A stretch of 64,000 nucleotides of DNA. Origin: Dehalococcoidia bacterium. Its GTDB lineage: Bacteria > Chloroflexota > Dehalococcoidia > SM23-28-2 > RBG-16-64-32. Shown here piece by piece: positions 1 through 18,235 of the stretch (its first letter is position 1; each line of letters starts with the position of its first letter). The notes under the pieces were generated by a model. That model did no database searches. It worked only from the letters and a program-made list of their open reading frames with translations, and was not told the DNA's origin. A program made the translations under genes and the position numbers. Location: positions 352,001 to 416,000 of the forward strand of contig CAXXTF010000001.1 of the NCBI GenBank assembly GCA_963665775.2, read 5' to 3'.

Positions 1-1
1 C

Positions 2-370
2 CACCTCCCCTACGACCGCCGCTGCCTGCACGAGGCGGTGCTCTCCGGCAGCAAGCAGCGGGCTAAGGAGGTCAAGACCCTGGATATCGCCAAACGGCTC
101 ATCGACTACGGCTTTCACCCCCCCACGATATACTTCCCCCTCATTGTGGACGAGGCGCTGATGATCGAGCCCACGGAGACGGAGGGGAAAGAGGCGCTGG
201 ACGCCTTCTGCGAGGCGATGCTGGCGATAGCGAGAGAGTCAGAGGAGGAGCCGGAGCTGGTGAGGGGCGCGCCCCATACGGCGCCCCTGCGCCGCCTGGA
301 CGAGGCGACGGCGGCCCGGCGGCCGGTCCTCAGATGGCAGCCTACAGAGGAGCGCGACGATGACCGGTGA
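2..370 (+). CDS. gcvPB: Glycine dehydrogenase (decarboxylating) subunit 2, C-terminal part (5' end outside window)
   Basis: [34 protein letters not shown] and [17 protein letters not shown] are the conserved GcvP C-terminus; the frame is open from the window edge. Confidence 0.93.
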
Positions 371-1547
371 CTTCAGCGAGCTGAACGTCCCCTCGCGGCT
401 GCTGCTGGGGCCTGGCCCCAGCAACGTCCACCCCCGCGTCTACCGGGCGATGATGACACCGGTCATCGGCTACCTGGACCCCCAATTCCTGCAACTCCTG
501 GACGACACCCAGCGGCCCCTGCGCAGCCTCTTCCGCACCGAGAGCGATCTGACCATCGCCATCTCCGGCACGGGTAGCGCGGGGATGGAGGCGTCCATAT
601 ACAACGTCTTAGAGCCTGGAGACAGAGCCGTGGTCTGCGTTAACGGCTTCTTCGGCACGCGGATGGCGGAGATGGCCCGCCGCTGCGGGGCCGAGGTGAC
701 CACGGTGGAGGCCGACTGGGGCCGCATCATCGAGCCGGATCAGGTAAAGGCAGCGCTACGGGCCAACCCCGGCACCAAGGCCGTGACGATCGTCCACGGC
801 GAGACCAGCACCGGCGTCCTCCAGCCCCTGGAGGAGATCTCGCGCATCGTCCACGAACACGGCGCCCTCCTGGTGGTGGACACCGTGACCACCCTGTCCG
901 GATGCGAGCTCCACGTCGACGAGTGGGGGATCGACGTCTGCTTCAGCGGCACCCAGAAGTGCCTGTCGGCGCCGCCGGGGTTATCGCCGATCACCTTCAG
1001 CCCCCAGGCGATGGCAGTCCTCGCCGCCCGCAAGGAGCCGGTGCGTAGCTGGTACCTGGACATCTCCCTGCTGCATCGATACTGGGGCGGCGGCGAGACT
1101 CGAGTCTACCACCACACACCGCCGATGACGATGCTGTACGCCCTCCGAGAGGCCCTACGCATCGCCCTGGAAGAGGGGTTGGAGACGCGCATCGCCCGTC
1201 ATCGGCGCCACGCGGAGGCGCTGGCGGCCGGTCTGGAGGCGATGGGCCTGCGTCTGCACGCCCAGGAGGGCTACCGGCTGCCCCCGCTGACCACCGTGCG
1301 CATCCCGGAGGGGGTGGACGACCTGGCCCTGCGCCGCGGCCTGCTTCAGGAACACAACATCGAGGTCGGCGGCGGCATCGGGGCCATGCAGGGGCAGGTG
1401 CTGCGCATCGGGCTCATGGGGTTCGGCTCCAGCGAGGCGAACCTGCTGGCGCTGCTCTACGCCCTGGAGACAGGACTGCTCAAGCAGGGCTTCCGGCTGG
1501 AGCCGGGGGCCGGGGTGAGCGCCGCCGCCAGCGCCCTCAACGCCTAA
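360..1547 (+). CDS. Alanine--glyoxylate / serine--pyruvate aminotransferase (class V PLP enzyme)
   Basis: LLLGPGPS N-terminus, [24 protein letters not shown]-lysine motif, YHHTPP; overlaps the gcvPB stop. Confidence 0.92.
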
Positions 1548-1657
1548 CGTCAGCTAGGCTCGCGCCCGGCCAGCCTAACACCCTCCACCGCTGAACTCAC
1601 AAGTACGCCTTTCAGCACTCAGAAACCGTAAGCGACGACATCCCCTCCTTCCATTTA

Positions 1658-1677
1658 TAGAACATACATCCTACTAT
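1658..1677 (+). promoter_or_regulatory. Putative LexA (GAAC-N4-GTTC type) operator overlapping a -10 box upstream of the capsid gene
   Basis: TAGAAC-ATAC-ATCCTA (2 mismatches to AGAAC-N4-GTTCT) overlapping TACTAT at 1672-1677. Confidence 0.45.
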
Positions 1678-1721
1678 TGCCCTTGCCAACGTTCCCTGAA
1701 CCAGAAGGAGGTACCAGCCCC

Positions 1722-2608
1722 ATGGCCCTCACCCTCGCCGAATCCGCCAAGCTCTCCAACGATACGCTCCTCACCGGCGTCATCGAGACCATCGTCAAGG
1801 ACTCCCCCGTCCTCCAGCGCCTGCCCTTCATCGAGATCGTGGGCAACGGCCTCACCTACAACCGGGAGGCCACAGCCCCCTCCGCCGCCTTCTTCGACGT
1901 GGGCGACAGCTGGACCGAGTCCACACCGACGTTCACTCAGCAGACCGTCACCCTGAAGATCATGGGCGGCGATGCCGACATCGACAACTTCATCCTAGCC
2001 ACCCGCTCCAACCTCCAGGACATGGAGACGGCAATCGTCCAGCTAAAGGCGAAAGCCGTCCGCGACCTGTTCGAGGACACCTTCATCACCGGCGACGCCA
2101 CCGCCGACCCCAAGACCTTCGACGGCCTGGACCAGCTCGTCGACGCCAGCCAAACGCTCTCAATGGGCGTCGCCGCGGCTCCCTCACCCTGGACAAGCTG
2201 GACAAGCTAATCGACACCGTCCTGGGAGGCAAGCCGGACCTGCTCCTCATGAGCCGGCGCTCCCGCCGCATCATCAACAAGCTGGCCCGCACCTCCGGCT
2301 CCTTCCTGGAAGCCGACCGCGACGAGTTCGGCCAGATGCTCCAGTTCTACGACGGCATCCCCATCGGCGTCTCCGACTACATCTCCGATACCCAGACCGT
2401 CGGCACAAGCACCGATTGCTCCACCATCTACGCCTTCCAGACCGGCGAGGGCGCCCTGTTGGGACTGACCTCCCCCGGCGGCCTCCAGGTGGAGCGCGTG
2501 GGTAGTCTGGAGACCAAGGACGCCACCCGCACCCGCATCAAGTGGTACTCCACACTGGCCCTCTTCAACACCGTGAAGCTGGCCTCGCTCACAGGCGTCC
2601 GCCCGTAG
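1722..2608 (+). pseudogene. Phage major capsid protein (HK97-like, ~295 aa), split by a 1-nt deletion near 2175 (true pseudogene or sequence error)
   Basis: RBS GAAGGAGG then ATG 1722; MALTLAESAKLSND..GVIETIVKDSPVLQRLPFIEIVGNGLTYNRE..GGDADID..FDGL; after the shift LTLDKLDKLID..GGKPDLLLMSRR..RTRIKWY..LTGV joins ORFs 1677..2210 and 2249..2608. Confidence 0.82.
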
Positions 2609-2625
2609 TCTTCCCCTCCGGCCAA

Positions 2626-2664
2626 GCTGGCGGGGCCCGGCCTGACCTCCCGGACCCCGCCAGC
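2626..2664 (+). other. GC-rich hairpin after the capsid gene (stabiliser or attenuator; no U-tract)
   Basis: GCTGGCGGGG...CCCCGCCAGC inverted repeat. Confidence 0.55.
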
Positions 2665-2696
2665 GCCCCTTCACCCTGACTCAGGAGACCAACACC

Positions 2697-3038
2697 GTGA
2701 CCACCATCAAGAAGGCGATCATCAAGACCTACGACCCCGCTGCACACGAGGCCGCCATCCAGATAGCGGGCTCCCTCGCCGTCTGGCTGGAGGCCGTTGC
2801 CGTCGCCGCCGACATCCCGGCCGGCGAAGTCCTGGCCGGCCGCGAGTGCAGCGTCCTCTTTTTCACTGACGACAACCCAGACGACGCCGTCGTCTTCACC
2901 ATCCACGGCGTCGTACCCATCCCCACAGGCCCTCTCGATATCGAGGTACTAGAAGGCGGCGTCACCGTCGGCACTACCACCTGCGTAGGCACGATCCAAG
3001 TCTACGAAGACGGAATCCTAGTAGGGAGCACACCGTGA
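2697..3038 (+). CDS. Hypothetical virion protein, possibly OB-fold spike/baseplate-like
   Basis: RBS AGGAG; beta-strand pattern KAIIKTYD..AAIQIAGS..GRECSVLFF..DAVVF; C-terminal repeat IEVLEGGVTVGT / IQVYEDGILVGS; position in module. Confidence 0.6.
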   Translation: MTTIKKAIIKTYDPAAHEAAIQIAGSLAVWLEAVAVAADIPAGEVLAGRECSVLFFTDDNPDDAVVFTIHGVVPIPTGPLDIEVLEGGVTVGTTTCVGTIQVYEDGILVGSTP

Positions 3039-3874
3039 GCACCTTCAAAATCGACTTCGGCTCAGGTTTCGACGTCACCGAGTCCCCCGCCGACGAGTTC
3101 AACATTGTTCTCGACCTGTCAGAGCTCACCGCCGCGGGCGAGCTCGGGGGCACCCTCGACGCCCCGACAGTAGACGCTACCCACTCCGGCTCTGCGCACC
3201 ACCTGGCAAGCGACCCTGGTCCGCCTAACGGTGCCGCAGGTGGCGAACTGGGCGGCACCTACCCCAGCCCAACCGTCGACGCCACCCACGCCGGCTCTAC
3301 CCACCACGCCGAAGGCCATACCATCCCCAGCCACTCCGATACGACAGCCACCGGTGCCGAGCTAGAGGAGCTGACCGACGGCAGCCAAACCGCTCTCCAC
3401 TCCCACGCTGGCGGGGGCGGCCCCACGAAAGTTCACAAAGCGGCCGATGAAAGCGTCACCTCTTCAACCACCCTCCAAAATGACGACGACTTCTCCTTCG
3501 CCGTCTCCGCCAACACCGACTACATCTTTGAAATACACGCTGCAATCACCTGCGACTTCCGGAATGGCTCCATCAAAGTGGCTATTACTGTTCCCTCCGG
3601 AGCCACCATGCTACTCATGGCTCAACTCCTGCAGAACAAGCAAAGCGAGGTCGACAACGCATCGCGTGCAGGCTGGACAACCATCAGCGGAACCGCCATC
3701 TCCCTTCGCACCAGCATCGTCAACGCCGGCTCGGGTAACGGCCTGCTCAGCATTTACGGCCGCGTAAGCGTCGGCGGCACCGCCGGAACCGTGCAACTGC
3801 AGTGGGCCCAAGAAATCAGCGACACAGACCCTACAACTCTAAAGGCTAATTCGTGGATGCTCGTGTTCTCCTAA
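3035..3874 (+). CDS. Fibre/receptor-binding-like virion protein
   Basis: Two repeats G(G)ELGGT..PTVDATH.GS.HH, a Gly linker and a beta-rich C-terminal domain (KAADESVTSSTTLQNDDDFSF..GTVQLQWAQ). Confidence 0.6.
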   Translation: MSTFKIDFGSGFDVTESPADEFNIVLDLSELTAAGELGGTLDAPTVDATHSGSAHHLASDPGPPNGAAGGELGGTYPSPTVDATHAGSTHHAEGHTIPSHSDTTATGAELEELTDGSQTALHSHAGGGGPTKVHKAADESVTSSTTLQNDDDFSFAVSANTDYIFEIHAAITCDFRNGSIKVAITVPSGATMLLMAQLLQNKQSEVDNASRAGWTTISGTAISLRTSIVNAGSGNGLLSIYGRVSVGGTAGTVQLQWAQEISDTDPTTLKANSWMLVFS

Positions 3875-3925
3875 TCAACCTACCTCCATCAATCCAGAGC
3901 AGGGCCCTACGACGACACCATCATC

Positions 3926-4036
3926 GTCGGCGGCACAGCCGGAACCGTACAGATGCGATGGGCCCAGAAGGTCGCCCACGCCAGCGATGCCAAAATCCTC
4001 AAAGGCTCCTACCTCATAGGCTGGAAGTTGTCCTAA
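3926..4036 (+). pseudogene. Stranded alternative C-terminus of the fibre-like gene
   Basis: Reads VGGTAGTVQMRWAQKVAHASDAKILKGSYLIGWKLS*, homologous to VGGTAGTVQLQWAQEISDTDPTTLKANSWMLVFS* (3770-3874); no start codon or RBS. Confidence 0.75.
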
Positions 4037-4145
4037 GCCCCACCCTCACACCGAGGACCGGCCTGTTATCGGCATCGGCCAGCGTGCTGGCGCAGTCCGC
4101 AGCGTATGACATCAGCAACCCTTCGCCCAGATAGGAGGACAGAAG

Positions 4146-4781
4146 ATGAACTTGAGTGATATGCGGGGCCGGCTACGCCAAGACCTGCATGACGAAGACG
4201 CTACCAACGAGCGCTGGACGGACGCCGAGCTGGATCGCCACATCGAGCGCTCCGTCCGCGAGTTCAGTCTCGCCGTCCCCCTGGAGACTAAGTCCACCCT
4301 CATCACCACTGCCGACAGCCGCGACCTGTCCATCTCCGGCCTCACGGAGCTTGTTTCCATCGCGGCGGTGGAGTATCCGGTGGACCAGTACCCACCGGCC
4401 TACGTGCGATTCTCCGTCTGGGAGTCCACCCTGACCCTGCTGGTCGACTCGGAGCCAGCAGCCTCCGAGAACGTCAACGTCTACTACACGAAGCTGCACA
4501 CCATCGACATCAGCTCATCGACGGCGCCGCCGCGATTCGAGGGCGTCATCGCCACCGGTGCCGCAGGCTATGCCGCCCTGGAGTGGGCCTCCTTCGCCAC
4601 CAACCGGGTGAACGTGGGTGGGCAGGACGTGTGGCAGGAGTATCTGACCTGGGGAGAGGAGAGGCTGGCCGATTTCCAGCGGGAGCTGGCCCGCCACGGC
4701 AGGCGCAACGCCCTGCGCGCCCGCCGCCTGTATCCGCCCGCAACACCGTCTGTCGATCAGTCAACCGTAGTGGGGCCGTAG
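4146..4781 (+). CDS. Phage head-tail adaptor/connector-like protein
   Basis: RBS GGAGGA; MNLSDMRGRLRQDLHD..RWTDAELDRHIERSVREFS helical N-terminus typical of adaptor proteins; position in module. Confidence 0.6.
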   Translation: MNLSDMRGRLRQDLHDEDATNERWTDAELDRHIERSVREFSLAVPLETKSTLITTADSRDLSISGLTELVSIAAVEYPVDQYPPAYVRFSVWESTLTLLVDSEPAASENVNVYYTKLHTIDISSSTAPPRFEGVIATGAAGYAALEWASFATNRVNVGGQDVWQEYLTWGEERLADFQRELARHGRRNALRARRLYPPATPSVDQSTVVGP

Positions 4782-4786
4782 CCCTC

Positions 4787-6745
4787 ATGCGCACCCTTGC
4801 TTCGCCGCTCCTGGACGCCCAAAAGAGTGACTCCGCCGTTCCCTACCTCAAGGTGGTGATCTCCGACCGCATCGGCGGCGTGCGGCGGCTGGACTTCACC
4901 CGACTGTACACAGGCAGCGAGCCGGACGGCTACCACGCCGCCGCTATGCCCGGCGACGGCTCCCTGCTGCGGGCCCGCGTCTCCTCCGGGCGGCTGTACT
5001 ACCAGCGCGTCGCCACCCCCGGCGCAAGCAGCGACTTCTCCACCTGGACGGACCTCAGCGCCGCCGCCAGTGCCGATGTCGCCCTCTGCGCCGACGGATC
5101 GCGCGCTCTTCTGTTCTACGTCGACAGCGACGGGCTGACCCTGAAGGTACGGGAAAGCACCGATAACGGGATCACCCTGGGCTCGGCGGTGACCGTGGCC
5201 ACCGCCTCCGACACCGTCGGCTGGCTGGCGGCGGACGTCAAGTCCAGCGGCGACACCCTCCTGCTGTACTCGGTGGGCGCCACGGTCTTCTCCGTAAAGC
5301 GCAGCGGCGGCAGCTGGGGGTCGGCCACAGCCTGGAGCAACAGCGTTGCCTCAGTGGCCGGGTTGGCCTGCTTCCACCAGGGCGATTTCAACGCCGTGGT
5401 GACGGGCACCGACAGCTCGGGCGACGCCTTCGTATGGACATCCATCTTCGGCGACGGCTTCTCCCAGGCCCCCAACACCTGGTCGTCGCTGCGGGAGGTC
5501 ACCCGTGCCAGCAGCGGCTCCGGCGTCAGCCTCCAGGCCCCCTTTCTGGCCCAACCGGACACCTACCGGCTCACCTTCGTAGAGAAGTATACGGGGAGCC
5601 TCTCGTACAGCCGGCCCTACCACAGCTACTCGCCCGCCACGGCCGATTTCGCGACGAACCTGTGGCGAGAGCCCGTCCCCTTCAATCTGACCTCCGATTT
5701 CGGCCTGGCCCTGGCCTTCAGCAGCGGCGCCGCCTGGTTAAGCACACCGGCCGGGGTCTGGACGGCCTCGCTTTCCTTCCCTTCCCTGGACGTGACGACC
5801 GACGTTCTGGAGGCTACGACCCGGGTCCGGCCGTTCGAGGGTCGACTGCGGTTGGTGCTGCGGAACGATGATGGTCGCTACTCGTCCCTCCCGCCCGCCG
5901 TGAAGCTGGCCGCGGAGGTGCGGGTCAGCCCCGGCTACATTACCGCCACCGGCTCCCAAGCATCCGATGGCCCGGCCTACTGGATCGAGGGGATCGAGTG
6001 GGCCTCCGGAGCCGGAAAAGGGACGCTGGCGCTGGAGACGAGAAACGCCTGGAGCCTGCTGGACGGCTGGCGCGCCCGCCGCCAGTATAGCTGGGCCGCC
6101 GGCCAGAAGAACGTCTTCGGCATCCTGCAGTTCCTATTCGCCCGCGCTGGGCTGGAGTTCTCGTCCGCCGGCAGCAGCGCCGCCGCCGGCAACCTCTACC
6201 CCACCTTCACGGTGCACCCCGGCGACTCCGGCCTGACGGCCGTGCAGCGGCTCCTGACCATGCTCCCGGACGTCGTACTCGTTCGGGGCGAGTTCGGCTA
6301 CCTGGTGGAGCCGACCGCCAGCCAGGCGTCCGACTATGTCTACGGCACCGATCACTCGCTGCTGACCGGACGCTACGCCGACCTCCTGCCCGGGGCCAAC
6401 CGGGCGCAGGTCTTCGGCGCTGGCGTGTTCGCCGAGGGGTTCGACTGGCCAGGAGTGGAGTCGGTCTACGATCTGCTGCGACAGGTTCACGACGCCAACC
6501 TGACCACGACGGGCCAGGCCCAGGACCGGGCCGACGCCTTGCTCCGCCACGAGCTGTTAGCGGCCAGGGGCGGCGAGATCGTGGTACCGGTAAACTGCGG
6601 CCAGGAGCTGTACGACGTCGTGGAGGTGACAGACGTCGGCGCGGGCCTAGCGGCAGCGAAGCGGCGGGTGCTGGGGCTGTCGCTGCGCTACTCCACAGGG
6701 GAGCGGCCTCTGTACGAACAGCGCATCACCCTGGGCGGGGTGTAG
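4787..6745 (+). CDS. Phage tail/baseplate hub-like protein (652 aa)
   Basis: Likely start ATG 4787 (MRTLASPLLDAQK); beta-rich N-half with Asp-box-like STDNGITL; C-half RLVLRNDDGRY..ELYDVVEVTD like tail hub proteins. Confidence 0.6.
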   Translation: MRTLASPLLDAQKSDSAVPYLKVVISDRIGGVRRLDFTRLYTGSEPDGYHAAAMPGDGSLLRARVSSGRLYYQRVATPGASSDFSTWTDLSAAASADVALCADGSRALLFYVDSDGLTLKVRESTDNGITLGSAVTVATASDTVGWLAADVKSSGDTLLLYSVGATVFSVKRSGGSWGSATAWSNSVASVAGLACFHQGDFNAVVTGTDSSGDAFVWTSIFGDGFSQAPNTWSSLREVTRASSGSGVSLQAPFLAQPDTYRLTFVEKYTGSLSYSRPYHSYSPATADFATNLWREPVPFNLTSDFGLALAFSSGAAWLSTPAGVWTASLSFPSLDVTTDVLEATTRVRPFEGRLRLVLRNDDGRYSSLPPAVKLAAEVRVSPGYITATGSQASDGPAYWIEGIEWASGAGKGTLALETRNAWSLLDGWRARRQYSWAAGQKNVFGILQFLFARAGLEFSSAGSSAAAGNLYPTFTVHPGDSGLTAVQRLLTMLPDVVLVRGEFGYLVEPTASQASDYVYGTDHSLLTGRYADLLPGANRAQVFGAGVFAEGFDWPGVESVYDLLRQVHDANLTTTGQAQDRADALLRHELLAARGGEIVVPVNCGQELYDVVEVTDVGAGLAAAKRRVLGLSLRYSTGERPLYEQRITLGGV

Positions 6746-6817
6746 AGGCCCAATGTTGAACGTCCCACCCCCCGCTTCGCCATCCTAACGGAGATGGACG
6801 GGTGCCGGTTCCGCCCG

Positions 6818-6847
6818 TATAATGGCCCCCAGTAGCACAAGTATTCC
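6818..6847 (+). promoter_or_regulatory. ruvB promoter -10 (TATAAT) with a degenerate LexA-like box
   Basis: TATAAT 6818-6823; AGCAC-AAGT-ATTCC 6834-6847. Confidence 0.4.
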
Positions 6848-6864
6848 ACAGAGATCGGACGGCG

Positions 6865-7887
6865 ATGCCCGAACGGATCATCTCCGGCGAGATCCAGGAC
6901 GCGGACCTGACCCTGGACACCACCCTCCGCCCCAGGCGGATCGATGAGTTCATCGGCCAGGAGAAGATAAAGGATAACCTGGCCATCGCCATCGCCGCCG
7001 CCCAGCAGCGGCAGGAGCCCCTGGACCATATCATGCTCTACGGCCCGCCGGGCCTGGGCAAGACCACCCTGGGCCACATCATCGCCCACGAGATGTCCGT
7101 CTCGATCCGTGTCACCTCCGGCCCGGCGATCGAGCGGGCGGGGGACCTGGCCGCCATCCTCACCAACCTCCAGGAGAACGACGTCCTGTTCATCGACGAG
7201 GTACACCGACTGCCGCGGGCGGCGGAGGAGGTGCTCTACCCAGCCCTGGAAGACTTCGCCCTGGACATCGTCCTCGGGCGGGGGCCCGGAGCCCGCAGCG
7301 TGCGCCTCTCGGTGCCCCGTTTCACGCTTGTGGGCGCCACTACCCGTTACGCCATGCTCAGCCCACCCCTGCGGGACCGCTTCGGCGCCGTTTACCGGCT
7401 GGACTTCTACGACCAGGAAGCGATCGCCGCCATCATCCGTCGCAACGCCACCATCTTACAGGTGCCCCTAGAAGCGGAGGGCGCCGAAGAGATCGCCCGG
7501 CGCTCCCGGGGCACGCCGCGGGTCGCCAACCGACTGCTACGGCGGGTGCGGGACTACGCCCAGGTGCGGGCCGACGGCGTCATCACATCGGAGGTGGCCA
7601 AGCAGGCCCTGGCCCGGCTGGACATAGACGACTTGGGGCTCGACGAGGTGGATCACAAGGTCCTGCGCACGATTATCGAGAAGTTTGACGGCGGCCCTGT
7701 GGGGATCGAGACGATCGCCGCTTCCATCTCCGAAGAGGCGGATACGATCATGGACGTATACGAGCCTTACCTGATGCAGGTGGGGTTCCTTCAGCGCACC
7801 GCCCGCGGCCGGATGGCGACACGCCACGCCTACGCCCACCTGGGCATCGAGGCGCCGCAGTCTCTCCAGGGAGGCCTGTGGGAGTGA
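6865..7887 (+). CDS. ruvB: Holliday junction branch migration helicase RuvB
   Basis: [57 protein letters not shown]. Confidence 0.98.
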
Positions 7888-7918
7888 GCGGGCGACAGCA
7901 GCTGGGGTCCTCGTTGCC

Positions 7919-9832
7919 TCAGCCAGCGGGCAGCGAGGACGGCGAGAGCCTGGTGTCCGGCGAGCGACCGTCGTCGCCGGGAGCCGCCTGCTCATACGTC
8001 ATACGGTAGAGCCGAGCGTATAGGCCGTCGAGGGCCAGGAGCTGATCGTGGCTCCCCTCCTCAGCAATGCGGCCCTGCTCCACTACCACCACCCGGTCGA
8101 CGTCGCGGATTGTGGAGAGCCGGTGGGCTATGACGAAGGACGTGCGCCCCTTGAGCAGCCGCTTGAGGGCTTTCTGGATTACCACCTCCGTGCGGGTGTC
8201 CACGTTCGCCGTCGCCTCGTCCAAAATGAGGATTCGCGGGTCGGCCAGGACGGCGCGGGCGAAGGCGACGAGCTGGCGCTGGCCCTGGGAAAGGTTCTGG
8301 CCACGCTCTTGGAGGACCGTGTCGTAACCGTCGGCCAAGCGCTCGATGAAATCGTGGGCCCCTACCGTACTGGCCGCCTGTCTGACCTCATCGTCGCTGG
8401 CCTCCAGCCGGCCGTACCGGATGTTCTCGCGCACGCTGCCTGAGAATACGAAGGGGTCCTGGAGCACGATGCCCAGACGGCGGGCCAGAGAGCGGTGCTC
8501 AATCTGACGGATGTCCGTGCCGTCTATGCGGAGACTGCCCTCGCTGACATCGTAGAAGCGGGCGACGAGGGCGGTGAGGGTGCTCTTACCGGCACCGGTG
8601 GGCCCCACCAGGGCCAGGCTCTCGCCGGGGCGGATGTGCAGGTTGATGTCCTGCAGCACCGGCACCCCGGGCACGTATTGGAAGCTGACGTGGTCGAACA
8701 CGATGTCGCCCCGGACGTCGGGCAGCTCGATGGCGTCCTCGGCGTCCACGATCTCCGGCTTCGTATCCAGCACCTCGAAGATGCGCTGGCCCCCGGCCAT
8801 CGCCCGCTGTAGCTGCGTATACTGCATGACGAGGCTCCGTACGGGATCGAAGAATCGCTGGACGTAGAGGGCAAAGGCGACGAGGATGCCGATGGTCAGG
8901 GTCTCTTCAAACACCCGTATCCCACCGAATACGATGATCAGGGCCGTGGCCGCTGCCATCAGCAGTTCCACCACGGGCAGGACGGCCGCCGTGAGGCGGC
9001 CAGCCTCCACGTTAGCGCTCCAGTTATCGGCGTTCACCGCGTCGAAGCGGCGCAAGTTCTCGCCCTCTCGGGAGAGACTCTGGATAACGCGCACCCCGGA
9101 GACGTTCTCCTGAAGGTTGGCGTTGACGATGGCGATCTTCTGCCGGGCCCGGCTGAACACCCGGCGAGCGCGGACCTGCCATATGGCCATGATCACGATG
9201 AGCACAGGCATGAAGGTGAAGGTGATGAGAGCGAGCGGCACGTCCATGACTAACATGAAGATGACTATCATGCCGAGGCCGACGAACTCCGACATGATCA
9301 AGAGGATGCCGCTGGTAAGGAGCTCCTGCAGGACGGTGACGTCGTTCTGGACGCGGGACATCACGCGGCCCACCTCGTTCCGGTCCAGGAAGCTAACCGA
9401 GAGCTTCTGGATGTGATCGAACATGTCCGTGCGCAGCTTCCGCAGCACGCTGTGCCCCATGTAGGCGGTCGTGATCTGCTGAATGAACTGTCCGATCCAG
9501 CCCATGATGGCCAGCCCCACCAGGGCAGCGCCGATAAGGGCTACCCCCTGAAGATCGCCGTCCTTGAAGATGTAGCTGTCGATGGCCAGACCGATGAGGA
9601 AAGGCTGGCTGGCGCCGGCCCCGGCGAACAGGAGCATACCAAGAAAGGCCAGGGCAACCTGCCTCTTATACGGCTTAACATAGGGGATCAGCCGCCGCAC
9701 AACCCTATGGTCGTAAGCGCTGCCCAACTCCTCGTCGTCCCAGCCGTCGGCGCTAGGCTGACCGCTGCCTCGCCGCATTGCGTTGGCCCCCCAGCCCCCG
9801 CCGCCCCCGTGTCCACCACCCCAGTGACCCAC
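7919..9832 (-). CDS. ABC exporter, fused permease/ATPase (heterodimer subunit B)
   Basis: TM domain, GPTGAGKS, LSQGQRQL, ILDEAT, AHRLST. Confidence 0.95.
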   Translation of the reverse strand: MGHWGGGHGGGGGWGANAMRRGSGQPSADGWDDEELGSAYDHRVVRRLIPYVKPYKRQVALAFLGMLLFAGAGASQPFLIGLAIDSYIFKDGDLQGVALIGAALVGLAIMGWIGQFIQQITTAYMGHSVLRKLRTDMFDHIQKLSVSFLDRNEVGRVMSRVQNDVTVLQELLTSGILLIMSEFVGLGMIVIFMLVMDVPLALITFTFMPVLIVIMAIWQVRARRVFSRARQKIAIVNANLQENVSGVRVIQSLSREGENLRRFDAVNADNWSANVEAGRLTAAVLPVVELLMAAATALIIVFGGIRVFEETLTIGILVAFALYVQRFFDPVRSLVMQYTQLQRAMAGGQRIFEVLDTKPEIVDAEDAIELPDVRGDIVFDHVSFQYVPGVPVLQDINLHIRPGESLALVGPTGAGKSTLTALVARFYDVSEGSLRIDGTDIRQIEHRSLARRLGIVLQDPFVFSGSVRENIRYGRLEASDDEVRQAASTVGAHDFIERLADGYDTVLQERGQNLSQGQRQLVAFARAVLADPRILILDEATANVDTRTEVVIQKALKRLLKGRTSFVIAHRLSTIRDVDRVVVVEQGRIAEEGSHDQLLALDGLYARLYRMTYEQAAPGDDGRSPDTRLSPSSLPAG

Positions 9833-9834
9833 GA

Positions 9835-11649
9835 CTAACTTCCTGCCGCCGAGGCCGCCACCTGTTCAGAGGTGCGCCTTGTGTCCAGCGCCTCCTCCTG
9901 GTCTCGCAGCTCCAGGTCGTATATCTGCCGATAGAGGCCGCCTTTGCTCAGGAGCTGATCATGCCGGCCCCGCTCCACGATCTGGCCATCTTCCAGAACC
10001 AATATCTGATCGGCCATCTTCACGGTGCGCAGCCGTTGGGCGATGACGAACGTGGTGCGGCCCTTCATAAGCTCCGCCAGTGTCTGCTGGATCAGGTACT
10101 CTGTCTCCGTATCCACGCTGGAGGTAGAATCGTCCAGAATGAGGATGCGAGGGTCCATCAGCATCGTCCGGGCCAGAGCGATGCGCTGCTTCTGGCCGCC
10201 GGAGAGGGTGATGCCCCGCTCTCCCACCCAGGTGTCGTAGCCATCGGGCAGGCCGACGATGAAGTCGTGGATATAGGCCGCCTTGGCCGCTGCCTCGATC
10301 TGCTCCTGGCTGGTGCCTACGGCACCGTACGCGATGTTGTCCCGGACGGTAGCGGAGAAGAGGAAGACCTCTTGCTGGACGGTGCCGATGGCCGCGCGCA
10401 GGGACGCTAGGGTGGTGTCCCGAATGTCCACGCCGTCGATTGTGATGCGACCGTTGGTGACGTCGTAGAAGCGCGGCATCAGGTTGACAACGGTCGTCTT
10501 ACCGCTGCCCGTGGGGCCCATGAGGGCCACCACCTGGCCCGGTCGAGCATCGATGTCGATCCCGCTCAGGACCGGACTGATCGAGTCGTAGCCAAAGGAC
10601 ACGTCCTCGAACCGGAGGTGGCCCTTCACCGCCGCCAGATCGGCGGCGCCGGCCGTCTCCTGGACCGCCGACTCAGCGTCCAGGATCTCGATGATGCGCT
10701 GGCCGGCCGACTGGGCGCGCGTCGCGATCATGATGATCCAGCCCAGGCTTCGCACCGGCACCTGCAAGATCGTCAGATAGAGGAGGAAGAGAACCAGACC
10801 TCCCTCTCCCAGATCGCCGGAGATCACCTGCCGCCCGCCGAACCAGAGAACGGCAGCCGCCGCCCCCAGCCACAACCCCGACATGATGGGGGCGTTCACG
10901 GCTTGAACGCGACTGGATTGGTAGGAGTCCTGGAACAGGGCATCGGCCTCTACGCGGAACTTTCGGCCCTCGTGCTCTTCACGGGCGAAGGCCTTGACCA
11001 CGCGGGCACCGGTGAGGGCCTCCTGAAGGACCGTGGTCATGCGCGCTAGGCCCTCTTGCACCCTCATCCACAGAGGCCTGAGCGTAAGGGACATGACTGC
11101 GGCGCGCCAGGCGATGAAGGGCAGGAAGGCCCACACGACCAACGCCAGCTTCCAATTTACAATGAGCATGATGGTCAGAACGGCGATCAGCAGGATAAAA
11201 ACGTAGACGAAGCGCAGCACGCCCATCTGGATGAACTGGCGGACCGCTTCCACATCCTGCGTCGCCCGCGACATCAGCTGGCCGGTCTGCTGCTGGTCGT
11301 GGTAGGCGTAGGAGAGCCGCTGTAGCCGGTCGTAGATGCTATTTCGGAGGTCGTAGGCCACCCGCTGACCGAGCCACTCACCCAGATAGGTCTGACCGAA
11401 GGCGAACACCCCGCGCAGAAGGGCAACGGCCACGATCGCCGCAGCCGCTATCAGCAAGAGGCTGCGATTGCCGGTGGCAATCTGTAGCCCATCCTCATCG
11501 AATTCGGGCGCCAGGCCGTAATCGATGGCCCAGGCAATGATCAGGGGCATGGCGAGCATGAAGGCGCCGGCGGCGAACACACAGAAGAGGGCCAGGGCCG
11601 TTCGCCGCTTATAGATGCCGAGGAAGCTGATCAGGCGTATTGCGTACAT
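9835..11649 (-). CDS. ABC exporter, fused permease/ATPase (heterodimer subunit A, degenerate site)
   Basis: GPTGSGKT, LSGGQKQR, ILDDSTS and AQRL (E>D and H>Q, as in TM287-like subunits). Confidence 0.95.
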   Translation of the reverse strand: MYAIRLISFLGIYKRRTALALFCVFAAGAFMLAMPLIIAWAIDYGLAPEFDEDGLQIATGNRSLLLIAAAAIVAVALLRGVFAFGQTYLGEWLGQRVAYDLRNSIYDRLQRLSYAYHDQQQTGQLMSRATQDVEAVRQFIQMGVLRFVYVFILLIAVLTIMLIVNWKLALVVWAFLPFIAWRAAVMSLTLRPLWMRVQEGLARMTTVLQEALTGARVVKAFAREEHEGRKFRVEADALFQDSYQSSRVQAVNAPIMSGLWLGAAAAVLWFGGRQVISGDLGEGGLVLFLLYLTILQVPVRSLGWIIMIATRAQSAGQRIIEILDAESAVQETAGAADLAAVKGHLRFEDVSFGYDSISPVLSGIDIDARPGQVVALMGPTGSGKTTVVNLMPRFYDVTNGRITIDGVDIRDTTLASLRAAIGTVQQEVFLFSATVRDNIAYGAVGTSQEQIEAAAKAAYIHDFIVGLPDGYDTWVGERGITLSGGQKQRIALARTMLMDPRILILDDSTSSVDTETEYLIQQTLAELMKGRTTFVIAQRLRTVKMADQILVLEDGQIVERGRHDQLLSKGGLYRQIYDLELRDQEEALDTRRTSEQVAASAAGS

Positions 11650-11789
11650 ATAGTCTGAACTAGATATTAGTGACGACTTAGCCCATTGTAGCTACATCTT
11701 ACGCTAACGTAAAGGGCGCAGATGGCCCGCTCTCCCTCGCCGTTTCGGACGGCGCTCCGCCGAAGGGCTATGCTAAAATTAGCGCTGAG

Positions 11790-12485
11790 ATGATAACGGC
11801 GGCTGGACGGTACCATATCCGCCCCATGAACCTGTCAGATATCCATCAGGTGATGGAGGTGGAAAAGCAGTCCTTTCCCACCATGTGGCCCCAGACTGCC
11901 TTCAAGCACGAGCTGGAGGAGAACCGGCTGGCGCGCTACCTGGTCGTCGTAGAGCGCGACGATCCCCCCACGCGAGAAGCGGCGCCATCGTCCAAGCTGC
12001 CGGACGCCGGAGCCGCGCCGGGCGCCCTCGGCCGCTTCCGCTTCCTGGGAAAGCTCCGGCACAACCTGGGCGGATCCGAGGGGAGGAGTCCGCCACCGCC
12101 AGAGGAACGGCCTGAGGCAATCCTAGGATTCATCGGCGTATGGCTGCTGCCGGACGATGCCCACATCGTCACCGTGGCCGTGCGCGAGAGCCACCGCCGG
12201 CGCGGCATCGGCGAGCTTCTCGTCATCGCAGCCATCGAGCTGGCCCAGGAGGATCAGCATTCGCAGGTCAGCCTGGAGTGCCGTGTCTCCAACACGCCGG
12301 CCCTCGCCCTCTACGAGAAGTACGGGTTCCGCCAGGTGGGGCTCCGCCCCCGCTACTATTCCGACAATCACGAAGACGCCTACATCCTGGCCGTCCGCTC
12401 CGTCACCTCTCCTCAGTACCGCAGCGAGTTCCAGCGTCTGAAGATAGCGCACCAACAACGCCGCGACAACGAGCCCGATCTGTAG
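11790..12485 (+). CDS. rimI: Ribosomal-protein-alanine N-acetyltransferase (GNAT) with internal insertion
   Basis: IRPM..DI..V..E..SF..W, AHIVTVAV..RRRGIG, LECRVSN..ALALYEKYGF..RPRYYSDNHEDA. Confidence 0.88.
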   Translation: MITAAGRYHIRPMNLSDIHQVMEVEKQSFPTMWPQTAFKHELEENRLARYLVVVERDDPPTREAAPSSKLPDAGAAPGALGRFRFLGKLRHNLGGSEGRSPPPPEERPEAILGFIGVWLLPDDAHIVTVAVRESHRRRGIGELLVIAAIELAQEDQHSQVSLECRVSNTPALALYEKYGFRQVGLRPRYYSDNHEDAYILAVRSVTSPQYRSEFQRLKIAHQQRRDNEPDL

Positions 12486-12513
12486 CTCGTATCCCCCAGG
12501 CCAACCCCACCAG

Positions 12514-13245
12514 CTACTGGGGGATCACCAGGACATCGCCGGGATGGAGGAGATCATCCTCCGTGAGGCCGTTGACAGCGAGCAGGTCTTCTATGCTCAC
12601 GCCGAACGAATCGGCGATCCCGTAGAGAGTGTCGCCCTCAACGACGGTGTACTCAAGAGGGCCGTCGGCGGTGGGCACAGGGGTTGCGGTGGGAGATGGG
12701 GCCGGCGTGGCGGTAGGGGTGGCTTCTGAAGCGACGGTGGGAATCACAAGTATCTGGCCGACCTGTATCAGGCTCTCCAGGGTGAGTCCGTTAACGGTGG
12801 CCAGCTCCTCGGCATCGACTCCGAAGACGTCTGCGATGCCGTAAAAGGTGTCCCCTTCGACAACGGTGTACGCGATGGGGGTAGGCTCAGGAGTTGGTGT
12901 GGGAGTCAGCGTGGGAGTCGGCGTGGCCGGTGGAGGCAGCGTAGGTATGGGAGTGGGAGTAGCGGTAGGGCTGGACACGCTGGGCCCGGGGCCGGGCGTG
13001 GGGTCTGGCAGGCTAACCTCTGAGAGCTGGCCCGGGATCGAGGGCGGCCGAACGAGCAGCCAAAGAGCCAGGACGCTGGCGAAGAGAAGAGCCAAGATGG
13101 AGATGCGGAAGACGGCGCCGGAAGGGGCAGCGTTAACGGGATTCAAGCAATCGGCGCAAATATCGTCGCCGTGGGCACCGCAGTAGAGGTTCCCACAGAG
13201 GGAACAGGACGCGGTCGCCTCTTGGTCGCAGGCGTAGCAGTCCAT
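12514..13245 (-). CDS. Membrane protein: N-terminal Cys/His Zn-finger, TM helix, Pro/Thr linker, two LysM domains
   Basis: CxxC..CxxC..CxxH..CxxC; hydrophobic stretch; PTPT repeats; two YTVVEGDT.YGIAD.FGV..L..NGL LysM units. Confidence 0.85.
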   Translation of the reverse strand: MDCYACDQEATASCSLCGNLYCGAHGDDICADCLNPVNAAPSGAVFRISILALLFASVLALWLLVRPPSIPGQLSEVSLPDPTPGPGPSVSSPTATPTPIPTLPPPATPTPTLTPTPTPEPTPIAYTVVEGDTFYGIADVFGVDAEELATVNGLTLESLIQVGQILVIPTVASEATPTATPAPSPTATPVPTADGPLEYTVVEGDTLYGIADSFGVSIEDLLAVNGLTEDDLLHPGDVLVIPQ

Positions 13246-13258
13246 CTTCGTTTATCAC

Positions 13259-13291
13259 GGGTCGGGTCGGCAAGAGGTACCGACCCGACCC
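13259..13291. terminator. Hairpin downstream of rplL
   Basis: GGGTCGGGTCGG-N9-CCGACCCGACCC, 12-bp perfect stem; no clear U-tract. Confidence 0.55.
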
Positions 13292-13302
13292 AATTTTACT
13301 CG

Positions 13303-13716
13303 CTATTCAAGTTCGACGGTAGCTCCGGCCTCCCGCAGCTTGCCGACCACATCCTCCGCATCGACCTTCGTGACACCCTCCTTCACGTTAGTCGGGGCGG
13401 CCTCCACCAGGTCCTTGGCCTCCTTGAGGCCCAGCGTTGTGACCTCCCGGACGACCTTGATGACGTTGATCTTCTTGTCGCCGATGTCCTTGAGCACCAC
13501 AGCCCACTCGGTCTTCTCCTCCTCGGCGGCCGGTAACTCGCCCGCCGAGGCAGCGGCAGCGGGGGCAGCGGCCACCGCCACAGGGGCGGCGGCGGTGATG
13601 CCAAACTGGTCCTTCATGCGCTCGTTGAGGTCGTGCAGCTCCAGCATCGTCATCTGCCCGATCAGGTCGACAACTTGATCCACTCGCTTCTGATCGTCGG
13701 TTGCTCCTTTAGCCAT
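13303..13716 (-). CDS. rplL: 50S ribosomal protein L7/L12
   Basis: Ala-rich hinge, EEKTEW.V.L, KINVIKVVRE.T.LGLKEAKDLVE. Confidence 0.97.
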   Translation of the reverse strand: MAKGATDDQKRVDQVVDLIGQMTMLELHDLNERMKDQFGITAAAPVAVAAAPAAAASAGELPAAEEEKTEWAVVLKDIGDKKINVIKVVREVTTLGLKEAKDLVEAAPTNVKEGVTKVDAEDVVGKLREAGATVELE

Positions 13717-13734
13717 TGCAGGTCTCCTTTCTTC

Positions 13735-14295
13735 CTATTGCGCTTCTTCGAGCTGATTCGCTCTGGCTTCTATAAGGCCTGGAAATTCCGAGAGAGCGGA
13801 GTGTAAGAGGCCGGAGAGCTCCTGGAGGGGTGCGTCCAGGAGGCCCAGGAACCCCGCCAGCGGCGACTGGATCTGGCCCAGGATATTGGCCAGCATGACG
13901 GGCCGGGCGGGCAGGCGCACCAGCTCGCGGAGCTCCGCCGCCGAGACGACCTGCCCATCCAGGAAGGCGCCGCGTACAGCGAAGGCGGAAGGGGCGCCCT
14001 GGGCGTACTCTGTGACCGCCTTGGCGGCCTCGACGGAGTCGCCGTAGGAGAAGGCGAGGGCGGTGGGCCCCTCCACGATGCTCATGAGCTCCGCCTGCCC
14101 GGCCTCCTGAGCGGCGAGGCGGAGGAGGGAGTTCTTGATCACCTTGACCTCCACGCCGCCGGCCCGCAAGCGGCGGCGCATCTGGTCCACCTCCCTCACG
14201 GTAAGGCCGCGGTAGTCCGCGCTGACGACGATCGAGGCCCGCTCTATACGGTCCTTCAGATCGGCGACCGTCTCGATCTTCTTCTGGGTGGGCAT
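13735..14295 (-). CDS. rplJ: 50S ribosomal protein L10
   Basis: DYRGLTV..RRRLR..VKVIKNSLL..GPTALAF; position. Confidence 0.96.
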   Translation of the reverse strand: MPTQKKIETVADLKDRIERASIVVSADYRGLTVREVDQMRRRLRAGGVEVKVIKNSLLRLAAQEAGQAELMSIVEGPTALAFSYGDSVEAAKAVTEYAQGAPSAFAVRGAFLDGQVVSAAELRELVRLPARPVMLANILGQIQSPLAGFLGLLDAPLQELSGLLHSALSEFPGLIEARANQLEEAQ

Positions 14296-14335
14296 TGGCC
14301 CTCCTCGATTCAGAGGCCCGAAGGCCCCCTATCCA

Positions 14336-14490
14336 CAACAAAAAGCCCTTGCCGTAAGAGGCAAGGGACACCAACTCTCGTCTTTGCTTCCAGCCTTAAG
14401 GCTGGGGCAGCGGACGGTGATCGATCCGGTTGCCTCGGCGGGCCAGCGATTAAGCCCCAAAGGGCGCCCGCTATCTGCGGCGGTTCGTCT
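14336..14490 (-). ncRNA. Ribosomal protein L10 leader with attenuator hairpin
   Basis: Minus strand AGAUAGCGGG..UUAA..CCCGCCGAGG core; downstream hairpin CCCUUGCC..GGCAAGGG followed by a U-run before rplJ. Confidence 0.65.
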
Positions 14491-14494
14491 GGTA

Positions 14495-15217
14495 TTATAC
14501 GGCAGCGTCGCCGCTTAGGGAAAGGGCGGCGGGGATATCCAGCTTGATGCCGGGACCCATCGTCGCGGTCAGAGTCATAGAGCGAATATACTGCCCCTTG
14601 GCGCCGGAAGGCTTCTCGTGGACAACGGCATCGATGAGCGCCGTCAGGTTCTCCAGGAGAGCGTCCTCTGTGAAACCGACCTTGCCCAGGGGCACGTGGA
14701 TCAGGGAGGTACGATCCGTGCGGAACTCTACCCGGCCCTGCTTGGCGTCACGGATCGCCTTGGGGAGGTCTTCATCCTGGACCACCGTGTTCGTGCGGGG
14801 GTTGGGCATGAGACCGCGCGGGCCGAGGACGCGGCCCAACCGTCCAACCTTGGGCATAACTTCCTTGACGGCAAGGGCAACTTCGAACTCCATCCAGCCA
14901 CCCTCGATCTTCTTCGCCAGCTCGTCGGTGCCCACGTAGTCGGCGCCCGCCCCCTCAGCGATACTAGCAGCCTCCCCTTCGGCGAACACGAGGACGCGCT
15001 GCTCCTTACCCAGTCCGTTAGGGAGGACGAGTGTGCCCCGAATCTGCTGATCGGCGTGGCGGGTATCCAGGCCGGTGCGGATATGCAGCTCCACCGTCTC
15101 GTCGAACTTGGCGAAGGCGGTCTCCTTCAAGAGGCTGACAGCCTCACGTGGCTCATAATTGCTGAGGCGGTCGATCCTTTCCACGGCGGCTTGGTACTTT
15201 TTCCCAGGTCGGGGCAT
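14495..15217 (-). CDS. rplA: 50S ribosomal protein L1
   Basis: AKFDETVE, LGRVLGPRGLMPNP, TMGPGI. Confidence 0.98.
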   Translation of the reverse strand: MPRPGKKYQAAVERIDRLSNYEPREAVSLLKETAFAKFDETVELHIRTGLDTRHADQQIRGTLVLPNGLGKEQRVLVFAEGEAASIAEGAGADYVGTDELAKKIEGGWMEFEVALAVKEVMPKVGRLGRVLGPRGLMPNPRTNTVVQDEDLPKAIRDAKQGRVEFRTDRTSLIHVPLGKVGFTEDALLENLTALIDAVVHEKPSGAKGQYIRSMTLTATMGPGIKLDIPAALSLSGDAAV

Positions 15218-15229
15218 GCTAACGTCTCC

Positions 15230-15652
15230 TTACGCTACCTCAACGCCCATGGAGCGGGCGGTGCCCTCCACCATGTGCATGGCGGCCTCGATATCGTTGG
15301 CGTTGAGATCTTTCATCTTGATCTCGGCGATCTGCCGGACCTGCTCCCGGCTGAGGGTGCCCACCTTCTCCCGCTTTTGGGCGGGGCTCCCCTTCTCTAT
15401 GCCCAGGGCCTTGCGGATAAGGTCCGAGGCCGGCGAGGTCTTGAGCACGAAGCCGAAGGAGCGATCCTCGTAGATGCTAATCTCCACGGGAACGATGCTG
15501 CCGGCCTGGGCGATGGTGCGCTCGTTATACTCCTTGCAGAAGGCCATGATATTGGCCCCGTGCTGTCCCAGGGCGGGCCCCACCGGCGGCGCCGGGGTAG
15601 CCTTACCGGCCTCCAGCTGAAGCTTGACGACGGCGCGGATCTTCTTAGCCAT
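15230..15652 (-). CDS. rplK: 50S ribosomal protein L11
   Basis: [31 protein letters not shown]. Confidence 0.98.
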
Positions 15653-15717
15653 GCTGATACACCCTCTCCATCACTGCCCGGACTCCCCTTCTCAATAGAG
15701 CCCCGTCGGCGCCCCGG

Positions 15718-16395: not shown

Positions 16396-16407
16396 TGCAA
16401 ATCCCCC

Positions 16408-16737: not shown

Positions 16738-16757
16738 GGTACTGCCCCAGCGCCTGT

Positions 16758-18148: not shown

Positions 18149-18235
18149 GTAGAGGTTCCTCCTATACCTGTGGCTCGTGGGCCAGATCCCGGTTTTCCAG
18201 CGGAACCCACCCACCCCATAATAGCGCCACTATAC

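Follow-up and report, generated by a model that had tools for sequence, protein, structure and literature searches.

A candidate phage-derived, GTA-like gene set in Dehalococcoidia, split and probably inactive in one genome

Does a short run of virion-like genes beside ruvB in a Dehalococcoidia genome belong to a particle system maintained by the host, of the gene transfer agent (GTA) kind, or to a phage, living or decayed? An earlier note on this DNA (here "the window," the whole 64,000-nt stretch analyzed) had proposed a vertically inherited, GTA-like system with its packaging genes elsewhere. Parts of this proposal are supported here for the class as a whole, but not for the copy in this genome.

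The capsid-to-tail locus

The ORFs of the module are co-oriented on the + strand of the window, from 1722-2608 to 4787-6745. They lie, as originally described, between a class-V aminotransferase gene (360-1547) and ruvB (6865-7887), with ABC transporter genes also among the neighbors. The position of dnaA (18849-20183), together with a change in GC skew sign at about 20.2 kb, puts the origin ~12-13.5 kb from the module. The proximity to oriC noted earlier is thus correct here, but it is not conserved: only linkage to ruvB recurs in relatives (13 of the 45 loci with enough downstream flank). The sole tRNA group within positions 1-20000 is at 18315-18580, no long direct repeats were found flanking the module, the closest tyrosine-recombinase match genome-wide is ~68 kb off this locus, and no integrase was found within 46 kb of either this or the packaging locus (below); by these searches the reported absence of an integrase, att repeat, and tRNA beside the module holds. 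With these features not found beside the locus, and host genes as its neighbors, an integrated prophage was rejected as a candidate. The module is also host-like in composition, as the codon style of the capsid, adaptor, and tail genes had suggested: GC3 of its genes is 0.73-0.93 (the minimum being that of p279, below), vs. a genome mean of 0.795 (sd 0.066). The listed strain SNPs (n = 23; 11 synonymous and 11 non-synonymous) are non-discriminating.

Five co-oriented genes with good ribosome-binding sites had been described. The sites are of AGGAG type upstream of the capsid, p113, and adaptor genes, but weaker for p279 and lacking for the 652-aa hub gene, which starts 5 nt past the adaptor stop. 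Orientation and coordinates stand, but the major capsid gene (1722-2608) is split over two frames, a break that had been missed. Its 5′ part (1722-2210; residues 1 to ~150) is in frame 0 and runs, after the frameshift, to a stop at 2208-2210; its 3′ part (2171-2608; residues ~150-295), recovered by three-frame translation, is in the -1 frame, and the listed ORF 2249-2608 corresponds to its last stretch. They match the phrog_212 major head protein at profile positions 4-153 of 301 (E 1.6e-40) and 174-294 (E 2.2e-19), respectively. The 5′ part shares 85% identity with the intact capsid (295 aa) of a relative (G015), and residues 149-295 likewise give 85% identity by tblastn. An intact relative's capsid matches the NCBIfam model MCP_gp7_epsi_15 (NF045672) over residues 4-293 (2.6e-58; 197.9 bits vs. 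a cut-off of 75); by these profile matches, the predicted protein is an HK97-fold capsid of the epsilon15 gp7 type.

DNA alignment with five intact relatives locates the break at a 1-nt deletion within 2165-2175 (GTC-GCCGCGGCTCC in the window vs. GTCAACGGCGGCTCC in the relatives), giving a gene of 887 rather than 888 nt. Contigs of runs X1, X4, X8, and X10, from four studies, cover the site without gaps (X1 may be the assembly's own source); since all carry the same deletion, it is a true feature of the population rather than an artifact of assembly. Among the listed runs that contain the stretch, none is an RNA run. The identity of the window capsid to that of G015 is like that of other family members (85-89%), so the break must be recent.

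The next gene, p113 (2697-3038; 113 aa), has an N-terminal OB-fold domain (residues 1 to ~72) followed by a short beta extension; in alignments the domain is homologous to a conserved 70-aa gene found after the hub in other families. The best Foldseek matches of its AF2 model (pLDDT 77.7), weak by E-value (3e-3 to 3e-2), are a Mu baseplate chain (9ki1_V), P2 gpV (3qr8), and the R2 pyocin spike (4s37), which suggests a central spike-like protein. The hub gene (4787-6745; 652 aa) had no sequence matches in Pfam, PHROG, or NCBIfam, and none to phages by tblastn. In the PDB, Foldseek with its AF2 model (pLDDT 74) matched lectin and sialidase propellers, as well as contractile-injection baseplate chains (7b5h_AJ, 7aef_q, 9gtr_q) and a tail protein (3d37); BFVD matches include "tail protein," "43 kDa tail protein," and Sipho Gp37-like entries, and in the Atlas, Chloroflexota clusters come first, followed by Sipho_Gp37 at 0.91. 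The hub and spike fold matches are weak (TM about 0.2-0.5), and the hub model is consistent with an N-terminal beta-propeller joined to a C-terminal fold of gp27/gpD/Sipho_Gp37 type.

Between these, p279 (3035-3874; 279 aa) has a His-rich N-terminus and a C-terminal domain (residues 130-274) found in phrog_24062 (E 3.2e-10). No homologue was found at the same position in relatives, which have other variable genes there, and the protein looks like a variable fiber- or receptor-binding protein. The untranslated + strand stretch directly downstream (3875-4036) is a duplicate of its C-terminal end: the translation resembles the p279 C-terminus, and a direct repeat (D2; 3756-3810 vs. 3912-3966, 78%) links the two. 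It is probably the leftover of a cassette exchange. The 211-aa protein (4146-4781) matches Pfam PF24175, SU10_adaptor (E 2.3e-7; 31.9 bits vs. a gathering cut-off of 27), as does its orthologue in L016 (1.9e-11; 45.2 bits); it is present in 67 of 81 loci and on this evidence is a predicted SU10-type head-to-tail adaptor. The spike, adaptor, and tail roles first guessed for these proteins were therefore reasonable.

Packaging genes and the state of this copy

Packaging genes elsewhere in the genome, as had been predicted, were found: a TerS-like gene, a putative TerL gene, and an SPP1-type portal gene lie ~205 kb from the capsid-to-tail locus (G000:C1:560.7-564.8 kb). The putative TerL matches Terminase_6C weakly (E 6e-4 to 3e-3, below cut-off), and its three PDB profile matches, all to terminase nuclease domains, are also weak (E 0.17-0.22). 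Its alignment has invariant GKN and DE motifs, presumably Walker A and B, and its position adjoining the portal gene was counted in favor of the assignment.

The portal gene has a TGA in this genome's assembly sequence at an invariant Trp, conserved in 14 of 14 other portals in one alignment and 11 of 11 in another. No homologues of the scaffold, p132, or p80 were found in this genome at E<0.1; the one trace of a scaffold is a 17-residue N-terminal match downstream of the portal, and the gene appears to have been lost or truncated, with at most a fragment left. The adaptor, hub, spike, fiber, and TerL frames are still open. With its capsid frameshift, portal stop, and missing or truncated scaffold, this copy probably does not work as a particle system, and to that extent the earlier proposal is unsupported for the very genome on which it was made.

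Distribution, inheritance, and selection in relatives

The Dehalococcoidia relatives mentioned in the note are real, and the set is widespread among relatives: a collinear version is present in 80 genome loci recorded as Dehalococcoidia or Chloroflexota. Searches of 41 related genomes recovered the hub in 33 (17 of the 19 of high quality), the capsid in 30 (17 of 19), TerL in 37 (19 of 19), and the portal in 36 (18 of 19), mostly in one copy per genome. The full set in relatives comprises genes for a TerS-like protein, TerL, portal, coiled-coil scaffold, capsid, small head protein, fiber, adaptor, propeller-hub, and OB-fold spike, the last directly 3′ of the hub gene in most families. Host genes (PD-(D/E)XK nuclease, HD domain, phosphotriesterase) occur between its parts. 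The loci examined showed no integrase, replication, repressor, or lysis genes within or next to the module, and no tape-measure family was found in 5 genomes. Of 15 loci fetched, 10 have the capsid, in each case in frame and 295 aa long, and the protein is 63-95% identical across the class; all 288 matching phage records are below 60% identity, and about 40% among the matches listed.

The set is nevertheless dispensable, being lost or fragmentary in several lineages (e.g., G007, G019, G024, G010, G020, and a Dehalococcoides-like genus that retains intact TerL, TerS-like, and p70 genes but has portal and hub as fused fragments). TerL is retained in genomes without capsid and hub, hinting that it, at least, may be kept for another reason. 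The same module is also found on at least 86 short IMG/VR contigs labeled viral, of which the divergent L191, L193, and L195 have a different gene order; free phages of this type are conceivable.

Hub distances follow those of RuvB over 23 loci (Mantel r 0.86, a value reached in 0 of 2000 permutations), although related sequences inflate tests of this type and, because RuvB adjoins these loci, the result reflects the history of the region. Hub identity also drops with decreasing kinship. Median NG86 dN/dS values are 0.13 for the capsid, 0.145 for the adaptor, 0.15 for p132, 0.17 for p70, 0.19 for the portal (two pairs), 0.21 for the scaffold, 0.25 for the hub, and 0.08 for TerL (one pair), as compared to 0.17 for ruvB. 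As judged from these comparisons, the set appears to be inherited vertically with the host genome, as had been proposed, and to be under purifying rather than relaxed selection.

Known systems and possible explanations

GTA-defining traits are taken here from PMC9662315. Caudovirus-like structural and packaging genes in a cellular genome, without replication or integration genes of their own, are what was found. Like GTAs of the RcGTA and Bartonella types and Brachyspira VSH-1, the set consists of chromosomal phage-derived head, packaging, and tail genes, shows vertical inheritance and purifying selection, may be split over several loci, and has been lost in some lineages. It differs in its independent origin, in Chloroflexota; in its much smaller size (~9 genes, without protease, tube, tape measure, or terminator); and in a short tail of adaptor, hub, and spike. 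Epsilon15 gp7-type capsids build T=7 heads, which may have more room than the gene set takes up: all ~12 kb of it could fit into such a head, unlike in classical GTAs, a point against a GTA.

Phages offer a second comparison. The capsid and adaptor families are those of epsilon15-like and SU10-like podophages and phrog_212 siphophages, and phages Rowa and PaMx11 have the identical order scaffold, capsid, small protein, adaptor. The hub has no phage sequence match, and the remainder of a phage genome is lacking here; a search of this genome with the TerL and portal of Rowa and PaMx11 gave no matches. Folds like those of the gp27/gpD hub and gpV/gp5 spike complexes of phages with contractile or long tails and of contractile injection systems are seen in the hub's C-terminal half and in p113, but the set has no sheath, tube, or baseplate wedge genes, its hub has an N-terminal beta-propeller, and in most lineages its spike is just 70 aa long. 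Capsid-forming phage-inducible chromosomal islands (cf-PICIs) are chromosomal elements with their own TerS, TerL, portal, scaffold, capsid, and adaptor, as here, but no full tail; they are mobile, carry genes for an integrase, replication, and regulation, and borrow tails from a helper. The Dehalococcoidia set brings a hub and a spike of its own, searches for integrase or replication genes found none, and its divergence follows that of the host; a cf-PICI was rejected on the first two grounds.

The explanation we favor, with somewhat better than even confidence, is an ancient domesticated phage-derived set, GTA-like in relatives and split and inactivated in this species. The locus would be the capsid-to-tail half of this set, captured into the chromosome of a Dehalococcoidia ancestor and since then maintained by vertical descent and purifying selection. 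In relatives with intact genes, scaffold and capsid would assemble a head around the portal, TerS and TerL would load it with DNA, and adaptor, hub, and spike would seal it with a very short tail, the variable fiber attaching to a target cell. The product, as suggested by the genes, would be a host-maintained GTA-like particle, or viriform. In this species the set would have been separated into its two loci and recently inactivated by the capsid frameshift, the portal nonsense codon, and the loss or truncation of the scaffold.

It is also possible, though we consider it unlikely, that the set was domesticated for some other purpose, the particle or some of its proteins serving in interference with infecting phages, delivery of protein or self-DNA, or TerL/TerS-based DNA processing. 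The retention of TerL in every high-quality relative, even those without capsid or hub, and the intact genes of the Dehalococcoides-like genus fit this, and the hub, adaptor, spike, fiber, and TerL still intact here might stay useful without a capsid. Open frames despite head lesions are, however, expected by chance after a recent inactivation, and complete sets keep head, neck, and tip genes together, in phage order and with similar dN/dS, which fits one assembled particle. An ordinary defective prophage remnant, drifting neutrally and of use to the host in no lineage, would account for the lesions here, for the fragments in several relatives, and for the flagging of such contigs by viral predictors. 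It is disfavored, and seems decidedly improbable, as neutral remnants would not remain intact across a bacterial class, with a capsid of constant length, dN/dS equal to that of ruvB, and divergence following RuvB, in genomes of only 1-3 Mb.

Even less credible is an active temperate phage or capsid-forming satellite inserting near ruvB. Hallmark virion genes in phage order, the IMG/VR contigs, and the other gene order in three of these would suit it, but the lack of phage functions and of att repeat or tRNA already described, the interspersed host genes, the prevailing single copy, and the two broken core genes here do not, and no terminal repeats were found on the 12 longest viral contigs. 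We give equally little weight to recoding, in which ribosomal frameshifting and TGA read-through would keep capsid and portal made here and the system functional. Across strains from four studies the frameshift is fixed, and both capsid halves retain their 85% identity to intact relatives; against this, there is no slippery heptamer or homopolymer in 2140-2208, relatives require no shift at the deletion site, the Trp codon is replaced by a stop in none of the other aligned portals, and a scaffold is lacking too.

The domesticated, GTA-like set might be taken further, as a Dehalococcoidia viriform exapted independently: a minimal, short-tailed DNA-packaging particle of about nine genes, older than the diversification of the class and kept even in genomes of 1-2 Mb. 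We hold this tentatively, at somewhat less than an even chance; no description of such a Dehalococcoidia system was found in the literature searched. If true, it would be the first such system from Chloroflexota and the smallest GTA-type gene set known, and the survival of TerL and the TerS-like gene in lineages that have lost the head would indicate a second exaptation. To our knowledge only a few independent GTA domestications are known, and a further one would be notable for involving a whole class of slow-growing, streamlined, mostly uncultured bacteria, including relatives of the organohalide respirers used in bioremediation. Many of the contigs labeled viral may be host genes, which bears on virus-host statistics for soils, sediments, and groundwater. 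What this genome itself shows is more limited, a lineage in the course of losing the system. If the system is GTA-like in its relatives, it would show that small genomes pay for a phage-derived particle, would serve as a very small model for how head, neck, and hub assemble, and would provide a path for gene exchange in organisms that have no known genetic tools.

The module genes and their surroundings

Five plus-strand ORFs lie between a class-V aminotransferase gene (360-1547) and ruvB (6865-7887). The earlier note counted five co-oriented genes here; the orientation and the ORFs stand, but the capsid gene is split over two frames by a 1-nt deletion. Residues 1-150 of the major capsid protein (1722-2210, + strand) match positions 4-153 of the phrog_212 profile, and the remainder, on the same strand in another frame and ending at 2608, matches positions 174-294. 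Aligned with five intact relatives, the gene is 887 nt in the window versus 888 nt in the others, one base being absent where they read GTCAACGGCGGCTCC. A long-read assembly error is ruled out as an explanation by independently assembled contigs of four public sequencing runs from four studies (X1, possibly the source sample; X4, X8, and X10, from other studies), which span 1600-6800 or the relevant part of it and are gapless at this point. Since these agree, the deletion is genuine, and fixed in the species. Inspection of 2140-2208 showed no slippery sequence near the break. The window capsid is 85% identical to that of the related genome G015, and other family members are equally similar to it; the broken gene being as close as they are, the loss is therefore recent.

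The N-terminal domain of the next ORF, p113 (spike-like; 2697-3038, + strand), is a homologue of p70, a conserved 70-aa OB-fold spike gene of relatives. The predicted structure of p113 (pLDDT 77.7) is closest to central spikes (Mu 9ki1_V, P2 gpV 3qr8, and R2 pyocin 4s37), at weak E values from 3e-3 upward. The fibre-like p279 (3035-3874, + strand) has phrog_24062 as its sole match, and its slot is filled in relatives by unrelated variable genes. Possibly p113 and p279 are the halves of a single gene; homology to the longer proteins of relatives covers the first ~74 residues only. Genomes of the family that includes this one have the spike domain relocated beside the capsid and fused to variable C-terminal parts. 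Directly 3′ of the p279 stop is a non-coding copy of its C-terminal end (3875-4036; 78% identity over 55 nt), a duplicated fragment resembling what a swap of receptor-binding cassettes would leave behind.

The 211-aa protein scores over the Pfam cut-off as an SU10-type adaptor; the X8 and X10 contigs skip 45 nt of its gene (4547-4591), so that other strains of the species lack 15 codons in frame. The 652-aa hub has no family match, and its model (pLDDT 74) combines a beta-propeller with the fold of baseplate and tail hub proteins. Its nearest neighbors in a protein atlas are Chloroflexota clusters, followed by Sipho_Gp37 tail proteins. PDB profile searches with the hub, p70, and p132 (a small protein of the module in relatives) gave no usable sequence match, and the searches run assigned no family to p132, p82, p136up, or p279. 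Strain SNPs (23 listed, with 36 further ones) include 11 synonymous and 11 non-synonymous changes, too few to judge relaxed selection. No RNA sequencing run was listed as containing the region.

The lack of phage integration features remarked on earlier is upheld: no att-like repeat was found around the module, no tRNA gene lies closer than 18.3 kb, and there is no integrase within 68 kb of the locus. Three tRNA genes (Thr, Tyr, Thr), dnaA (18849-20183), and a change in the sign of the GC skew, near 20.2 kb, follow one another over 18315-20400, which is likely the replication origin region.

A separate packaging locus

The prediction that packaging genes would be found elsewhere in the genome was correct: a TerS-like gene, a TerL-like gene, and a portal gene lie together ~205 kb from the module. 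The portal, of SPP1 type (560.7-562.1 kb on the window's contig, C1), was found with the SPP1_portal model; a 487-aa open TerL-like gene and the small TerS-like gene adjoin it. The Pfam models Terminase_6N, TerL_ATPase, and Phage_portal had no match in five genomes, and TerL and portal proteins of phages Rowa and PaMx11 had none as probes in this genome (G000). The evidence for a putative TerL is weak but consistent: its Terminase_6C matches fall below the cut-off; all three of its PDB profile matches are to terminase nuclease domains (weak E values, 0.17-0.22); its motifs are invariant; and a portal gene is always adjacent.

In the assembly, the G000 portal has a TGA codon at a Trp that is invariant in the 14 and 11 other portals of two alignments. 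The idea of an in-frame stop recurring in the portals of three relatives (G012, G016, and G022) was rejected, as their stops lie outside the conserved gene, and an internal stop occurs only in G000. No homologue of the scaffold, p132, or p80 was found in G000 at E<0.1. Immediately 3′ of the portal, a 60-aa ORF that shares 11 of 17 N-terminal residues with the scaffold of a relative may be a scaffold stump from the rearrangement that split the gene set. Overlapping the portal stop is a 67-aa ORF (C1, 560490-560693) that contains a hydrophobic stretch and could encode a small membrane protein belonging to the module.

Gene order, distribution, and inheritance in relatives

The similar capsid, adaptor, and tail genes mentioned in the earlier note from other Dehalococcoidia do exist, as an ordered set across 81 loci. 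The constant order is TerS-like, TerL, portal, (host genes), scaffold, capsid, p132, variable gene, p82, adaptor, hub, p70; in some genomes the host genes between portal and scaffold encode a PD-(D/E)XK nuclease, an HD-domain protein, and a phosphotriesterase. Many of these loci are short contigs, on which counts run from 81 for the hub through adaptor (67), p70 (63), capsid (56), scaffold (31), p132 (30), ruvB (24), and portal (18) to TerL (11). Where at least 9.5 kb is available upstream of the hub, adaptor and capsid are found in 36 and 34 of 39 loci. The ruvB gene follows the hub in 13 of the 45 loci whose downstream flank is 6 kb or longer, mostly those of nearer relatives. The genomes of genus g30 (G316 and G109) carry portal, scaffold, capsid, adaptor, hub, spike, and TerL, an intact set.

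Among 41 genomes of the same order (G000 included; 19 of high quality), the hub is present in 33 (17 of high quality), the capsid in 30 (17), TerL in 37 (all 19), and the portal in 36 (18). Hub identity falls from 71% within the family to 41-43% in other families. In a sample of the phylum, including the unpublished genomes G078 and G185, 80 of 401 genomes matched at E<=1e-10, among them, by the listing, 28 of 45 from the same class. A scan of species-representative genomes gave 188 loci, 80 of which were kept (named Dehalococcoidia, Chloroflexota, or Chloroflexi MAGs, and one Acidobacteriota), and 2061 cluster representatives were recovered at E<=1e-3 when 1.84 billion proteins were searched with a profile.

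Two relatives have unusual arrangements. In G005 the portal is in two halves ~31 kb apart (C17, 20516-21178 and 52500-53165), as if split by a large insertion; G005 retains intact capsid, hub, and TerL genes. G012 has, in addition to the regular copy of the module, a second one that is compact and far more divergent (C12, 6152-12360; portal 47%, capsid 49%, and hub 38% identical), with TerL present. This copy could be paralogous, could belong to a real prophage, or could come from contamination during binning.

Vertical inheritance, as originally proposed, is borne out by the co-divergence of hub and RuvB: over 23 loci with both genes, their pairwise distances correlate with a Mantel r of 0.86 (reached by 0 of 2000 permutations), a value inflated by relatedness and, since the two genes are neighbors, one that describes the region. 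The suggested dN/dS comparison (NG86, pairs of 80-99.5% identity, at most 40 pairs per gene) points to purifying selection, with medians of 0.08-0.25 versus 0.17 for ruvB: capsid 0.13, adaptor 0.145, p132 0.15, p70 0.17, and hub 0.25, and, from few pairs, portal 0.19 (2 pairs), scaffold 0.21 (7), and TerL 0.08 (1). All 10 capsid-bearing loci among the first 15 encode an in-frame capsid of exactly 295 aa. Over the wider set, 51 of 56 capsid matches extend without a break over 85% or more of the query, none of the 51 with an internal stop; the rest, judging from position, either run off the end of a contig or represent the window's own frameshifted gene.

None of the 288 phage capsid matches reaches 60% identity (~40% among the matches listed), and the hub has no tblastn match in phages. 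The same collinear module is found on 86 short IMG/VR contigs labeled viral; none of the 12 longest has terminal repeats. In three divergent ones (L191, L193, and L195) the TerS-like, TerL, and portal genes are downstream of the hub rather than upstream, an order that circular permutation or tandem copies would explain; a check for terminal repeats gave none.

A proposed particle system and its probable decay

Taken from sequence, the features of the module are consistent with a domesticated phage particle system that arose independently. Vertical transmission is one of the defining traits of gene transfer agents (GTAs) according to PMC9662315; the module shows this, has no replication genes of its own, and is under purifying selection, the latter two being criteria added here beyond the traits in that text. 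The predicted tail is minimal, with adaptor, hub, and spike, and no tape-measure family was found in five genomes. The capsid is a member of the epsilon15 gp7 family, which forms T=7 heads; head capacity might therefore exceed the gene set, unlike in classical GTAs. Our search of the literature on Dehalococcoidia and Chloroflexota particle systems and on Dehalococcoides terminases found no description of such a system; the IME1 elements of the nearest paper, a preprint, are filamentous and a different element.

The proposed particle system is dispensable, as some relatives keep only fragments of it. TerL and the TerS-like gene are intact in five genomes without capsid and/or hub (G019, G007, G024, G010, and G020). 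In a Dehalococcoides-like genus (loci L116 and L117, 10.6-15.6 kb) the portal and hub are reduced to differently fused stumps, and the reading frames of TerL, the TerS-like gene, and p70 remain open. TerL may have a role of its own. G000, judging from its genes, joins the lineages in which the particle system decays.
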